Shown one piece after another: positions 41,755-44,186 of a DNA stretch of 64,000 nucleotides. The stretch lies in the sequence record PQ553088, one strand, 5' to 3'. The notes under the pieces are model-generated. The model saw nothing but the letters and a program-made list of their open reading frames with translations, searched no databases and was not told the DNA's origin. The first letter of the stretch is position 1. The number at the start of each line of letters is the position of its first letter. A program made the translations under genes and the position numbers. The DNA is from Escherichia phage OES_C-1.

Positions 41755-42335
41755 TATTCACCACAGAATTCGTTGATATTTTCCCAATTTAACTTATTCA
41801 AGTTTTTCTTAGGAACATTAAACACTTCAATACCCGCATTTCGCAGAATATCATCCCAACCAGGTTTATTTTTATCGTATGTTTCGCAATAAACCAGCTT
41901 TTTAATTCCAGATTGAGCTATCGCTTTTGCACAATCCGGGCAAGGAGAAAGTGTTACATACATAGTAGCACCTTCAATTGAAGAACCGTTTCGTGCAGCA
42001 AACAAAATTGCATTTAGTTCAGCATGAATTTCATTTTTAGACGACCATTCAGAGTGAGCGCTACGGTGTTCTTTCGCCAAGACAAAACGATCAGTTGAAC
42101 CAAATGATACGCATTCAGGCTTATGACCTTGAATGATAGTATGTTTAGGCTTATTCAGCAACCAACCTTGCTCGGCAGCATAATCACAGCAATTCACACC
42201 ACCTGCCGGAGAACCGTTATATCCAGTAGAAATAATACGTCCATTCTTTTCAATTACTGCTCCTACCTTCCAGGAGCAACATTTTGATTCTTGTGATACT
42301 AAATATGCAATTTGAAGTACTGTACTCGCTTTCAT
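41754..42335 (-). CDS. cd: dCMP deaminase
   Basis: 193 aa; zinc-binding HAE...PCPDC motifs. Confidence 0.9.
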   Translation of the reverse strand: MKASTVLQIAYLVSQESKCCSWKVGAVIEKNGRIISTGYNGSPAGGVNCCDYAAEQGWLLNKPKHTIIQGHKPECVSFGSTDRFVLAKEHRSAHSEWSSKNEIHAELNAILFAARNGSSIEGATMYVTLSPCPDCAKAIAQSGIKKLVYCETYDKNKPGWDDILRNAGIEVFNVPKKNLNKLNWENINEFCGE

Positions 42336-42670
42336 TTCATAATCACCAGATAAGCAGATTTAGCAGTTTCAACACGATAAATTTCATGACGAAGTTTAGT
42401 TATACTTTTAATAACAGAACTAATTATATTCTGCCCGTCTTTAAAGCGGTTTTTCTTATCAATAAAAATTGCACCAGCCATCTTTTTGTGAAGCTCAACT
42501 GGATACTTCGTCACAATAATAGCATCATACACAGAAGGATGAATACTGTTCACCAGAGTATCATTCATTAAAGTTATTCTAATGAACTGTGCTGTTTCAG
42601 AGTCAAGCGCTCTATGATCGCCAGTATCATTTTCAAGACAATTATCAATTATATCAGTTAAATTCATCAT
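42332..42670 (-). CDS. hypothetical protein (cd.1 position)
   Basis: 112-aa ORF. Confidence 0.5.
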   Translation of the reverse strand: MMNLTDIIDNCLENDTGDHRALDSETAQFIRITLMNDTLVNSIHPSVYDAIIVTKYPVELHKKMAGAIFIDKKNRFKDGQNIISSVIKSITKLRHEIYRVETAKSAYLVIMK

Positions 42671-42903
42671 AGTACGCCATACACCCTTTGTGCTTCAACT
42701 AATCCATCAAAATCCAATTTGAGATGTGTTATTTGGTCACCATCACCTGGATTCACAATTACTAATACTGAACGAGGAGTTTCGGTAATAACACGAACCG
42801 ATGTTTCAGGAAATCGTTCAGAAACCTTATTTACCAATTCCTGAGCAAATAGTTTAACTTTTTCTTGGAATTCTTTAACAGTAATTGGTTTTTCACTTAG
42901 CAT
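42667..42903 (-). CDS. hypothetical protein (cd.2 position)
   Basis: 78-aa ORF. Confidence 0.5.
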   Translation of the reverse strand: MLSEKPITVKEFQEKVKLFAQELVNKVSERFPETSVRVITETPRSVLVIVNPGDGDQITHLKLDFDGLVEAQRVYGVL

Positions 42904-43424
42904 GTTGATCCAAGCTCCTTACTTTCAACGTTTTTAACTAATTTGACAGAAACTAATTCAGCATCTTGAGTAATCATTACCGGACCTTCTTCATACTCTT
43001 CAAGATATTCTAGAGCTTTCTTTTTAGCTTCTTCCTTCGTATCAGTTTGAGCATAGATATAAAACATACAACCAGTAATACCTACTACTTTCCACTTAAT
43101 TTCTTTATCAGCTTTAATTTCAAATTTACTGACAGAATCATCTTTTTGAACTTCTTCGAAAAAAGAATATTCTAACATATAAGCAATTGAAAATAACGGG
43201 CTAACTTTATAGGATTCGCCCATTACATCAACAGCTTTATACCAGCAGTCATCAATTTCTCGTTTAATGCTAATAACATTTTTCGCAGGATCTATTTTTA
43301 CTTTAAATGAATTTTCCCCAATAAACTGGGCAATTCGTTTATTAGCCCCGCAAGTTTCATTAAAAATATCTTTATATCCAGCTTTAAAGCGATAAACCTT
43401 ATCTTCTTCAAACCATTCGCTCAT
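42897..43424 (-). CDS. hypothetical protein (cd.3 position)
   Basis: 175-aa ORF with early promoter-like motif and hairpin upstream. Confidence 0.5.
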   Translation of the reverse strand: MSEWFEEDKVYRFKAGYKDIFNETCGANKRIAQFIGENSFKVKIDPAKNVISIKREIDDCWYKAVDVMGESYKVSPLFSIAYMLEYSFFEEVQKDDSVSKFEIKADKEIKWKVVGITGCMFYIYAQTDTKEEAKKKALEYLEEYEEGPVMITQDAELVSVKLVKNVESKELGSTC

Positions 43425-43456
43425 TTCAATTTCCTCATTTGTTTTTGGTAGAGCTA

Positions 43457-43485
43457 TAATATCACAACTCTACCGTAAAGTAAAC
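43457..43485 (-). promoter_or_regulatory. early promoter-like GTTTAC-N18-TATTAT upstream of cd.3 ORF
   Basis: Minus strand GTTTAC at 43480-43485; weaker -10; overlaps an inverted repeat GGTAGAG/CTCTACC. Confidence 0.4.
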
Positions 43486-43487
43486 TA

Positions 43488-43763
43488 TTAAATTGCTTTG
43501 AATTCTGATGTCTGTGATTCAAAACGAATATCGCCTTTGATAACTAACTCAGCATCAAGACCGAATACGACAATGATATGCGCGGAACCTGGATACAGCG
43601 TAATTGCAATAGAATCCACTTGGTCTGGAAGCAAAGTGTTCAATACATGAGTCACTTGAGCATGAATTCGAAGCTCAGCTGCGTTATCAAGCTTTTCAAA
43701 CATATTATTAGCGATAATTTGGCTAAACACTACTTCTACGATTTTAGAATAAGTCGGAAACAT
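43488..43763 (-). CDS. hypothetical protein
   Basis: 91-aa ORF. Confidence 0.5.
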   Translation of the reverse strand: MFPTYSKIVEVVFSQIIANNMFEKLDNAAELRIHAQVTHVLNTLLPDQVDSIAITLYPGSAHIIVVFGLDAELVIKGDIRFESQTSEFKAI

Positions 43764-43765
43764 AT

Positions 43766-43966
43766 TTACCTCACATAATTTTCTTCAAGCCAATCAATAA
43801 CATCCAACGCATTATCAAAAATTGAACCATCTACTTTGTCTTCTGTTTCATAATCAAGAACATCTAAGCCTACTCTTCCGTCAACAATAGGCCATAGACA
43901 AAATAGATATTTCTTTTCTTTTTCAATCTTATCGCAAAGACGATAAATCTTTTCTATGTTATTCAT
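43766..43966 (-). CDS. hypothetical protein
   Basis: 66-aa acidic ORF. Confidence 0.5.
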   Translation of the reverse strand: MNNIEKIYRLCDKIEKEKKYLFCLWPIVDGRVGLDVLDYETEDKVDGSIFDNALDVIDWLEENYVR

Positions 43967-44186
43967 AAGTTTTCCATGGTAAAGGCAGTTTAGTTTTCTT
44001 TACTGTTAGTTCAACATCAGGATTCTTTTCTCTTAATTTAAGACATTCCTCCCAAGCCCTGATTTCACTAGTGAATACACAAAATTGCCCATCACTAGTA
44101 CCAACTAAACCACTATTTACAATAACAATAGCCCAAGTTTCATGATGTAAAGCCATCAAAAATCTCCCGAGGCAACTTGCCAGCAT
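43959..44186 (-). CDS. hypothetical protein
   Basis: 75-aa ORF overlapping pseT 5' end by 31 nt. Confidence 0.45.

Follow-up and report, generated by a model that had tools for sequence, protein, structure and literature searches.

A probable GoF/Frd.2-type accessory gene behind an early promoter with a stem-loop in the cd-pseT interval of Escherichia phage OES_C-1

Gene content of the cd-pseT interval

We analyzed the interval between cd and pseT in a 64,000-nucleotide stretch of Escherichia phage OES_C-1 (PQ553088), hereafter called the window. The source phage is a Tequatrovirus, and its cd-pseT region is 100% identical to that of phage OES_C-2. On the minus strand, the interval is flanked by cd (41754-42335) and pseT (44156-45064) and is filled by six ORFs of 112, 78, 175, 91, 66 and 75 aa, as a preliminary description of this DNA had reported. 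The sole gap among them (43425-43487, 63 bp) contains an early promoter overlapping a hairpin, which that description had also recognized. The features considered here, all on the minus strand, are listed below, together with two that lie elsewhere in the window.

39640..39679, minus strand: second cassette, between the 30.8 and 30.7 homologs, with GTTTAC and the stem GGTACAGGATAT/ATATACCTGTACC around TATTAT
42332..42670, minus strand: cd.1 ortholog, 112 aa (position and length of T4 cd.1; phrog_2063, E = 4e-50)
42667..42903, minus strand: cd.2 ortholog, 78 aa, DUF7320 (PF24005, E = 3e-34; T4 cd.2)
42897..43424, minus strand: accessory 175-aa ORF (RB32ORF214c), absent from T4, a probable GoF/Frd.2-superfamily paralog
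43430..43439, minus strand: Shine-Dalgarno region AATGAGGAAA, conserved, at the 3′ edge of the cassette
43447..43474, minus strand: stem-loop GGTAGAGTTGTG-ATAT-TATAGCTCTACC, straddling the -10
43456..43485, minus strand: early promoter GTTTAC-N18-TATTAT with a TGn extended -10, ortholog of T4 Pe133295
43488..43763, minus strand: cd.3 ortholog, 91 aa, DUF7355 (PF24051, E = 1e-32; T4 cd.3)
43766..43966, minus strand: cd.4 ortholog, 66 aa (phrog_2360, E = 6e-42; T4 cd.4)
43959..44186, minus strand: cd.5 ortholog, longest ORF 75 aa (PF25744 T4_Y13H; phrog_2430)
55742..56143, minus strand: frd.2, 133 aa, the superfamily paralog within the window (PF03197 FRD2, E = 4.5e-39; phrog_622)

A coding signal was seen for all six ORFs, and the comparison of the window with phage vB_SsoM_113 gave 30 synonymous and 6 non-synonymous codon differences. 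The T4 annotation shows cd.1 to cd.5 only, so the count of five given for T4 was correct. A synteny comparison across T-even genomes showed that only the 175-aa ORF is additional to the T4 set; it is also the ORF that the gap promoter serves first. Thus, five of the ORFs have one-to-one T4 orthologs, and because the remaining one has none, the earlier finding survives. Gene order and gene lengths in the T4 cd region are the same as in the window, and compared with the window, the T4 reference cd.2 is frameshifted by one base close to its start. The cd.1 ortholog shares 62% amino acid identity with SP18 cd.1, and there is a 7-nt overlap between the stop of the 175-aa ORF and the cd.2 start. The remark that none of the six proteins had a recognizable motif was fair, although cd.2, cd.3 and cd.5 are now placed in the Pfam families DUF7320, DUF7355 and T4_Y13H.

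The 75 aa listed for cd.5 probably overstate its true length. In vB_SsoM_113, cd.5 is annotated with 198 nt and begins on the final base of pseT, the T4 record giving a 228-nt form; in the window, the corresponding start codon is the ATG that overlaps with the stop of pseT (44156). Because the profiles span only residues 11-75 (PF25744, residues 13-72; phrog_2430, residues 11-75) and the relative carries the 198-nt annotation, a 65-aa protein starting at 44156 is the probable product.

Judged by gene order and profile matches, the interval is an ordinary T4 early block, cd.5-cd.4-cd.3, promoter, cd.2-cd.1-cd, with one accessory gene added. Our overall explanation, which we hold with a probability of about 0.7, is that this block carries an accessory gene of the GoF/Frd.2 type behind Pe133295 and its stem-loop, at a boundary resembling that of the published PeSL cassettes.

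The early promoter, its stem-loop and the module boundary

The promoter consists of GTTTAC (43485-43480), an 18-nt spacer and TATTAT (43461-43456), and matches to GTTTAC-N16-19-TATWAT occur four times in the window compared with 0.18 expected. In the T4 record, Pe133295 is annotated as an early promoter between cd.2 and cd.3. Over the 75-nt element, T4 and the window differ at three positions, none of which lies in the -35, spacer, -10 or stem. Whereas Pe133295 drives cd.2 directly in T4, the window promoter drives the 175-aa ORF first. The earlier observation that one ORF has its own promoter and hairpin is accurate in that both are present upstream, but the arrangement is not special to that ORF, as T4 has both without it. 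The ATG of the 175-aa ORF (43424-43422) lies 5 nt after the Shine-Dalgarno region, and the ORF is translated from this Shine-Dalgarno sequence, which belongs to the promoter; ATGAGGAAA was present in 12 of the 12 cassettes compared.

The GGTAGAG/CTCTACC repeat that had been noticed is part of a longer, 12-bp stem that includes G.U pairs and in which 43474-43463 pair with 43458-43447 around the loop ATAT. The 86-nt region folds with -19.5 kcal/mol (z = -3.6), and none of 200 shuffles folded as well. The stem covaries across genera: in a small alignment of 12 sequences, partly picked after inspection, 82% of the cells were paired compared with 37-56% when the partners were slid, 6 of the 12 pairs had changed on both sides, and none of 500 shuffles reached the observed covariation score. 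G.U pairs are frequent in the stem, with seven AU and four GU at one pair and eight GU and three AU at another. The orthologous site in Gaprivervirus is without a straddling stem, and three further cassettes (L055, L083 and L110) have the same promoter/Shine-Dalgarno signature with a weak stem or none. Rfam contained no family matching the hairpin.

A reading of the hairpin as a canonical intrinsic terminator was rejected, because the stem is followed by AAAAAC with no U-tract; a scan found no such terminator on the minus strand here. A transcript that reads through from upstream carries the complete hairpin immediately behind the stop of cd.3. In contrast, transcripts initiated at a Pe133295-type promoter would begin inside the 3′ arm and would lack the hairpin. 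At the RNA level, the hairpin may end, attenuate or protect the 3′ side of the upstream message.

Promoter-early stem-loop (PeSL) cassettes have been described in T4-like phages (Arbiol et al. 2010, PMC2839356; Comeau et al. 2014, PMC4122927), and on sequence comparison the gap element matches them, with a different placement of the stem. In PST/T4, the PeSL promoter consensus is TTTACW-N17-TAYWAT and the stems lie just upstream of the promoter (PMC4122927). The window has TTTACT-N17-TATTAT (the same as GTTTAC-N18), then AATGAGGAAA and then the ATG, but its covarying stem is placed around the -10, taking in part of the spacer. Nor is the stem of the G-run/C-run type seen in RB49, and no U-tract follows it. 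The remaining features agree: the window cassette is intergenic and combines a sigma-70-type early promoter, a stem-loop, a Shine-Dalgarno sequence and an ATG; like PeSLs, it occurs in several copies per genome in hyperplastic early regions; and it adjoins an indel that separates close relatives and coincides with a recombination breakpoint. Terminator activity and mini-circles have been demonstrated experimentally for the RB49/phi1 cassettes only (PMC2839356). Because a single cassette flanks the variable ORF, in contrast to the arrangement with two PeSLs, the mini-circle mechanism is not directly applicable here.

Other loci and other genera show the same promoter-hairpin design with stems of unrelated sequence. 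The second copy in the window (39640-39679) folds with -16.1 kcal/mol, and in Winklervirus a homolog of the 175-aa ORF occupies the 30.8-30.7 interval, with the equivalent cassette downstream of it. Between dhaeg and SP18, identity is about 95-100% through GTTTAC and 40-70% directly after it, an exact mosaic breakpoint at the -35. A scan of IMG/VR for GTTTAC-N34-46-ATGAGGAAA returned mostly chance matches in unrelated contigs and a few genuine T4-like cassettes. In line with the published PeSL model, these comparisons show the conserved promoter and Shine-Dalgarno flanks acting as the border of a module, where recombination swaps or deletes the downstream gene.

Distribution and family of the 175-aa ORF

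The 175-aa ORF is already annotated as RB32ORF214c, a hypothetical protein, in vB_SsoM_113 and RB14. Its tblastn matches, in 302 phage records, were all at least 90% identical. Among approximately 493 records with flanks at least 95% identical, about 301 (~60%) carry the ORF; it is missing in T4 and in approximately 190 other close relatives (~40%), which are viable phages. In JK45, the missing segment runs exactly from the ATG of the ORF to the cd.2 ATG, and in both T4 and JK45 the promoter and Shine-Dalgarno sequence are joined straight to cd.2. The ORF had been expected to be lineage specific, and it is indeed absent from T4, but in the narrow sense it is not: the same slot holds diverged homologs in Dhakavirus (31% identity, E = 3e-11) and in Gaprivervirus. 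By this distribution, the gene is older than Tequatrovirus, and since these homologs hold the same slot, T4 has most likely lost it. Between genera, the ORF is 27-32% identical, compared with 44-87% for its neighbors, which makes it, by protein identity, the fastest-evolving gene of the block. Its variants include truncated forms, which are common, and one in-frame-deleted form. As judged from these records, the gene is dispensable and has often been gained, lost or truncated. When 1.84 billion representative proteins were searched exhaustively with HMMER, the ORF matched nothing but fragments of its own gene and P0006, a tandem Ig-like repeat protein of 1345 aa, which we judged spurious because its score sums 17 weak repeat matches.

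GoF (ComC-alpha), Frd.2 and MotB.1 have been grouped as Tevenvirinae early proteins with an "LSm-like fold" (Kim et al. 2025, PMC12152347). According to that study, the fold is a bent five-stranded antiparallel beta-sheet whose nearest solved folds are FeoA, IdeR and Hfq, and the GoF/Frd.2 family, with a predicted LSm/SH3-like N-domain, is implicated in mRNA stability, the effect of GoF on mRNA having been seen for the D25Y mutant only (PMC12152347). CRISPRi-ART in T4 scored Frd.2 as "Fit", alone among the genes of unknown function (PMC11879866).

Profile comparisons connect the 175-aa ORF to this family in both directions. The goF family phrog_2980 matched orthologs of the ORF at 3.6e-9 and 3.3e-7 and the window ORF at 4.8e-3. 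T4 GoF, in turn, matched phrog_3710, the ORF's own family, at 8e-12 over residues 1-120, and Frd.2 matched it at about 1e-4 (9.7e-5). With hhalign, the ORF family aligned to the GoF profile with 89% probability (E = 2e-6) and to an Frd.2-seeded profile with 75% probability (E = 2.6e-5, 115 columns), values below 95% that denote remote homology, the GoF alignment covering only ~43 residues and the 75% match perhaps having been aided by a divergent, possibly GoF-like sequence (P0091) in the Frd.2 profile (A8). Matches of the ORF to a single Frd.2 sequence and to MotB.1 were not significant, the link to Frd.2 running only via the PHROG and hhalign profiles, and an HMM built from six family sequences, run against every ORF of the window and the T4 segment from 30.5 to pseT, gave no significant paralog at its sensitivity. 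Common to all subfamilies are the motifs K.Y.F..N..A..G..F.V and E(F/Y)..F.E.

The likeness to GoF and Frd.2 extends to gene context and layout. The ORF is an early gene of similar size in a dispensable T4-type region, lying behind an annotated early promoter and being absent from viable relatives; it has the shared N-terminal motifs and reciprocal profile matches, and its layout is likewise an N-domain, an acidic linker, a short strand and a helix. However, at 175 aa it is longer than GoF/Frd.2 (133-141 aa), with an added beta-hairpin and a tail at its C terminus, falls into PHROG families 3710 and 5804 rather than 622, diverges much faster and shows no detected link to MotB.1.

A first AF2 model from 34 sequences was too weak to use (mean pLDDT 58). 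With a broader alignment, the mean pLDDT was 67, with 79-88 in the N-domain, where five short strands (11-13, 40-44, 50-55, 62-63 and 89-91) with helices between them were predicted and no clean five-stranded barrel. Foldseek against BFVD returned 36 uncharacterized Straboviridae proteins at E <= 1e-3, and a fold search of the PDB gave weak neighbors only, of the FeoA/IdeR type that is also nearest to GoF/Frd.2. The family profile found no PDB sequence below E = 0.02, the best matches being astrovirus spike proteins, which we judged to be noise, and the ORF had no match in Pfam or NCBIfam apart from a porin far below threshold in NCBIfam. From the profile matches and shared motifs, the 175-aa ORF probably belongs to the GoF/Frd.2 superfamily of Tevenvirinae early proteins, and homology predicts an SH3/LSm-like N-terminal beta domain followed by a small beta-beta-alpha C-terminal module. 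By the same homology, the protein most likely binds RNA or otherwise modulates the stability or expression of mRNA early in infection.

Alternative readings and significance

The preliminary description had suggested that small early ORFs such as these serve host takeover or anti-defence, and the 175-aa ORF could be read as an early factor of this kind, kept or lost according to the hosts that a phage meets. Its place behind a strong early promoter, its presence/absence polymorphism among near-identical phages, its standing as the fastest-evolving ORF of the block with common truncated variants, and its location next to pseT would all suit such a role; pseT counters PrrC. Membership in the GoF family is itself compatible with it, as an RNA-binding protein could counter RNA-targeting defences. 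Fast evolution and polymorphism, however, fit an arms-race role and do not demonstrate one. The ORF shows no similarity to characterized anti-defence proteins, Pfam and NCBIfam are empty, the sequence and fold searches of the PDB returned weak matches only, and a literature search found no paper mentioning RB32ORF214c or providing functional data for the ORF. The suggestion is not supported, and the data favor the GoF/Frd.2 family, which is linked to mRNA metabolism; we consider an anti-defence function rather unlikely.

The inverted repeat might instead be a DNA operator at which a dimeric phage or host protein represses the early promoter over its -10. Such a site would have the classic repressor-operator geometry, the mechanism of T4 early-promoter shut-off is not fully known (PMC2988021), and symmetric changes in both arms would preserve a palindrome too. 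The frequent G.U (G.T) pairs, however, break DNA symmetry while keeping RNA pairing, and on the sense strand only. Within one genome, the stems of two cassettes differ (GGTAGAG versus GGTACAGG), and those of other genera are unrelated; because the stem sequences differ in this way, a single protein could not recognize all of them, and an operator is quite improbable. Least credible of all is a homing endonuclease or a mobile-element remnant, which would explain the patchy distribution of the 175-aa ORF. BASEL records MZ501098, MZ501096, MZ501050 and MZ501113 do label it "putative homing endonuclease", and homing endonuclease genes lie nearby in Gaprivervirus. Yet Pfam, NCBIfam and PHROGs reveal no nuclease domain (HNH, GIY-YIG, LAGLIDADG etc.), the profile relatives are GoF and Frd.2, and the ORF keeps a syntenic position in three genera instead of being scattered. 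The same records give an unrelated ORF upstream of pseT the identical label, which suggests that the label was propagated rather than derived.

An extension of the preferred reading, an accessory GoF/Frd.2-type gene behind a PeSL-like cassette, would give the cassette a dual use, as an RNA insulator or stabilizer and as a DNA docking site for GoF-family genes, with the ORF acting as an RNA-directed host-range or counter-defence factor. The hairpin RNA would insulate or stabilize the upstream message, and the conserved DNA flanks would form a portable dock by which fast-evolving GoF-family genes hop between early slots (cd.3/cd.2 in three genera, 30.8/30.7 in Winklervirus), the ORF being retained or lost according to the host. 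We regard this combination as speculative and rather doubtful. If it were true, relatives with and without the ORF would constitute a natural experiment on GoF function and on PeSL shuffling in T4 proper.

Overall, current understanding is not overturned; the observation is real, largely explained and of modest importance. Pe133295, cd.1 to cd.5, the RB32ORF214c annotation and the PeSL concept were already known, and what is new is the probable GoF/Frd.2 family of the ORF. An ORF labeled hypothetical or, wrongly, homing endonuclease in approximately 300 phage genomes would thereby gain a probable family whose biology is under active study. Since about 60% of the close relatives have the ORF and about 40% do not, near-isogenic pairs for testing a GoF-type protein already exist. 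Moreover, the covarying stem around the -10 and the breakpoint right after the -35 make the idea of a regulatory cassette as a recombination linker testable in the best-developed phage model.

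Gene content of the cd-pseT interval

The window belongs to the genus Tequatrovirus. Over 3.4 kb around the interval, it shares 100% identity with the Escherichia phages OES_C-2 and OES_C-3, and hundreds of T4-like phages match it at 96-97%. Six minus-strand ORFs, with the lengths and coordinates of the preliminary description, lie between pseT and cd, and a single gap separates them:

44156-45064, minus strand: pseT, first in minus-strand order, followed by the six ORFs and then cd
43425-43487: the sole gap among the six ORFs, 63 bp
43485-43480, minus strand: GTTTAC (-35), followed by an 18-nt spacer ending in TGA
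43474-43447, minus strand: stem-loop GGTAGAGTTGTG-ATAT-TATAGCTCTACC
43461-43456, minus strand: TATTAT (-10), then AATGAGGAAA, then ATG
42897-43424, minus strand: the 175-aa ORF
41754-42335, minus strand: cd, last in minus-strand order

The six ORFs look like real genes. Every one matched a PHROG family at E ≤ 1e-37, three matched Pfam families (cd.2, DUF7320; cd.3, DUF7355; cd.5, T4_Y13H), and 30 synonymous versus 6 non-synonymous differences separated the window from vB_SsoM_113. The T4 reference annotation places exactly five genes between cd and pseT (cd.1, cd.2, cd.3, cd.4 and cd.5), as the preliminary description stated, and a well-annotated relative names the ORFs of the window cd.5, cd.4, cd.3, RB32ORF214c, cd.2 and cd.1. 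Therefore, the 175-aa ORF (RB32ORF214c) is a non-T4 gene, the single ORF beyond the T4 set by synteny, and one-to-one T4 orthologs do not exist for all six.

T4 cd.2 (NC_000866 133031-133261; comparison locus L002:4032-4272) carries one extra G, AAAGGAATTCC versus AAAGAATTCC in the window (42667-42903), and its annotation accordingly gives a GTG start and a 76-aa product whose N-terminus is different. This G is either a T4 strain frameshift or a sequencing error; cd.2 is intact in the window and other relatives (ATG start, 78 aa). A second non-T4 ORF (45061-45381, minus strand, 106 aa) lies between pseT.1 and pseT. It corresponds to RB32ORF217c and phrog_2364 and is labelled "putative homing endonuclease" in BASEL records, with no Pfam support.

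The promoter and stem-loop cassette

The promoter in the gap has an extended -10 and is typical of the strong early promoters of T4 (PMC2988021). The preliminary description had proposed an early promoter, GTTTAC-N18-TATTAT, overlapping an inverted repeat. The promoter indeed matches Pe133295, annotated in T4 between cd.3 and cd.2, of which it is by alignment the ortholog, and the repeat folds as a stem. Between the end of cd.3 and the SD, three positions differ between T4 and the window, all of them outside the -35, spacer, -10 and stem, and in T4 the SD is joined directly to cd.2. In phage JK45, the 175-aa ORF is missing precisely from its own ATG to the ATG of cd.2. Because T4 and JK45 keep the promoter and hairpin without the ORF, these elements belong to the backbone and not to the insert. 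The ORF is the first gene behind them, and its stop overlaps the cd.2 start.

The 5′ arm of the stem is part of the spacer, and the 3′ arm consists of the -10 end and the next 9 nt. For the 86-nt region, the folding energy is -19.5 kcal/mol (z = -3.6), and Rfam contained no family for the hairpin. Elsewhere in the window (40086-40169, minus strand), the Rfam model of the Rhizobiales sRNA Atu_C8 matched below threshold (31 bits, E = 0.003; gathering score 50) across the 3′ end of a 72-aa ORF (40125-40343) and the small space separating this ORF from the 30.8 homolog; the match probably reflects no more than a structured hairpin between genes.

The stem reads GGTAGGAC/GTCCTACC in Dhakavirus and GGTGGAG/CTCTACC (with G.U) in JK45, and a cassette at an unrelated locus of SEA1 (Gelderlandvirus) carries AGGGTTAT/ATAACCCT in the same register. 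In an anchored, ungapped alignment of 12 cassettes, two of which were put in deliberately despite lacking a good stem, 82% of pairing cells were paired compared with 37-56% when partners were slid. Both sides had changed in 6 of 12 pairs, and none of 500 shuffles reached the observed covariation. This pattern indicates that compensatory change maintains the stem. The repeat could also be read as a symmetric DNA operator; however, G.U pairs are frequent in the alignment, which favours a sense-strand RNA structure and makes the operator the less likely reading.

A second cassette of the same design (39679-39640; stem GGTACAGG.../...CCTGTACC, -16.1 kcal/mol) lies between the 30.8 and 30.7 homologs, and seven other promoter-like sites gave folds of just -1.5 to -6. 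The equivalent Winklervirus cassette (GGTGAGGGTCTG/TAGACTCTCACC) directly follows a member of the ORF family. At the orthologous Gaprivervirus site, the hairpin is short and confined to the spacer, and the stem is weak or missing in some T4-like cassettes. In an IMG/VR contig (3300039008_000212; L071, 7734-7791), GTTTAC-N18-TATAAT sits within an 18-bp stem (-22 kcal/mol) with a T7 run behind it; this stem, which straddles the -10, has the appearance of a genuine intrinsic terminator joined to a promoter.

Distribution and history of the 175-aa ORF

By tblastn, 302 phage records matched the ORF, each at least 90% identical. Among the ~493 records with flanks at least 95% identical, ~301 carry it and it is absent from ~190, T4 and T4T among them. 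In Dhakavirus (dhaeg, JS98, JS10), a 184-aa ORF occupies the same cd.3/gap/ORF/cd.2 slot (31% identity, E = 3e-11), and Gaprivervirus (SP18, VR7, P479) has a homolog of 173-180 aa there, unannotated in P479. Homologs in the same slot rule out recent acquisition by Tequatrovirus. The Winklervirus homolog (LC53, Gravdalen) is placed elsewhere, between the 30.8 and 30.7 homologs; Mosigvirus and JK45 have none. Between genera, the ORF is 27-32% identical versus 44-87% for its neighbours, making it the fastest-evolving member of the block. Shortened or internally deleted copies are common, including fragments of 95-112 aa; in PaulHMueller (MZ501098, L005:1983-2240), residues ~15-104 are deleted in frame, so that the GoF-like N-domain is lost and the C-terminal module remains. 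The ORF is an old, dispensable and quickly changing accessory gene, and T4 most likely lost it. In P0004, a protein predicted from a 644-bp metagenome contig, comparison with window 57554-58207 (gp59) and 42897-43424 revealed a gp59 segment ...RLKQIKFKFEED fused to ...KVYRFKAGYKD... of the ORF at a common FEED microhomology, either an assembly chimera or a genuine illegitimate recombinant.

Nucleotide comparison of dhaeg with SP18 gave ~95-100% identity throughout cd.4 and cd.3 as far as the last base of GTTTAC and 40-70% from the next base on; therefore, a recombination junction lies exactly at the cassette. PeSL (promoter-early stem-loop) cassettes have been proposed as transcription-unit insulators and recombination linkers in hyperplastic regions of T4-like genomes, PST/T4 included (PMC2839356, PMC4122927). 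Taken together, the features of the gap cassette match this concept: presence or absence of the ORF runs ATG to ATG, the Winklervirus homolog adjoins another cassette, and the mosaic junction falls at the -35. However, the window stem straddles the -10, whereas published PST/T4 stems are described as preceding the promoter; the ORF is flanked by one cassette only; and no U-tract follows the stem, which is thus not a canonical terminator.

Other genes occupy this block. In JK45 (L004:2204-3196) and in Mosigvirus AV109, ST2 and NHEP11 (L011, L012 and L013, from ~1300), the Tequatrovirus cd.1 position within this hyperplastic block is taken by an auxiliary metabolic gene, which encodes DAHP synthase (phospho-2-dehydro-3-deoxyheptonate aldolase). 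In Gaprivervirus, the pseT-cd.4 interval holds an HNH-like homing endonuclease ORF in opposite orientation (P479, L006:356-1120, minus, 254 aa; SP18, L007:1-324, minus); it is unannotated in P479, as is the 173-aa slot ORF (L006:1959-2480).

Family and putative role of the 175-aa protein

Pfam, NCBIfam and PDB sequence searches gave no match, and HMMER, run exhaustively against 1.84 billion proteins, returned only the ORF's own fragments and one spurious repeat protein. Profile comparisons linked it to two T4 early proteins, GoF and Frd.2. The window ORF matched phrog_622 and the goF family phrog_2980 weakly, and its orthologs matched phrog_2980 at 3.6e-9 (Gaprivervirus) and 3.3e-7 (Dhakavirus). 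In reverse, T4 GoF matched the ORF's own phrog_3710 at 8e-12 over residues 1-120, and the window's Frd.2 (55742-56143) did so at 1e-4. Profile-profile alignment of the ORF family gave 89% probability for GoF (E = 2e-6) and 75% for a Frd.2-seeded alignment (E = 2.6e-5, 115 columns). The aligned N-domains share K.Y.F..N..A..G..F.V at the start and E(F/Y)..F.E at the end, and a C-terminal strand and helix are common to the proteins. Two neighbouring ORFs of the Serratia phage LC53 (L008:1023-1493, 156 aa; L008:2474-2920, 148 aa) have a similar N-terminal motif, ..A..Y(I/V)(N/G)..(S/D)FEV, and the 156-aa ORF weakly matched phrog_5804 (E = 8.5e-4); these similarities suggest that several paralogs of one superfamily are grouped in a single Winklervirus early region.

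Mutant GoF(D25Y) stabilises a reporter mRNA (PMC12152347), and when T4 was screened by CRISPRi-ART, Frd.2 alone among the genes of unknown function scored "Fit" (PMC11879866). By this homology, we infer that the 175-aa protein is an early product acting on RNA or gene expression. The preliminary description was right about an extra ORF and a promoter with hairpin in the gap; its anti-defence role is unsupported here, and would be compatible with how the gene evolves.

We propose that read-through transcripts from upstream would include the entire hairpin 13 nt past the cd.3 stop, where it may attenuate transcription or, once the transcript has been processed within the A-rich leader, guard the 3′ end. 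Transcripts begun at the gap promoter would have their 5′ end inside the 3′ arm and lose the hairpin, leaving an A-rich, putatively unstructured leader with a strong SD. Overall, most of the locus is ordinary T4 biology. The addition is one accessory gene, which is placed behind a regulatory cassette of a known type and now has a probable place in a known but poorly understood family.
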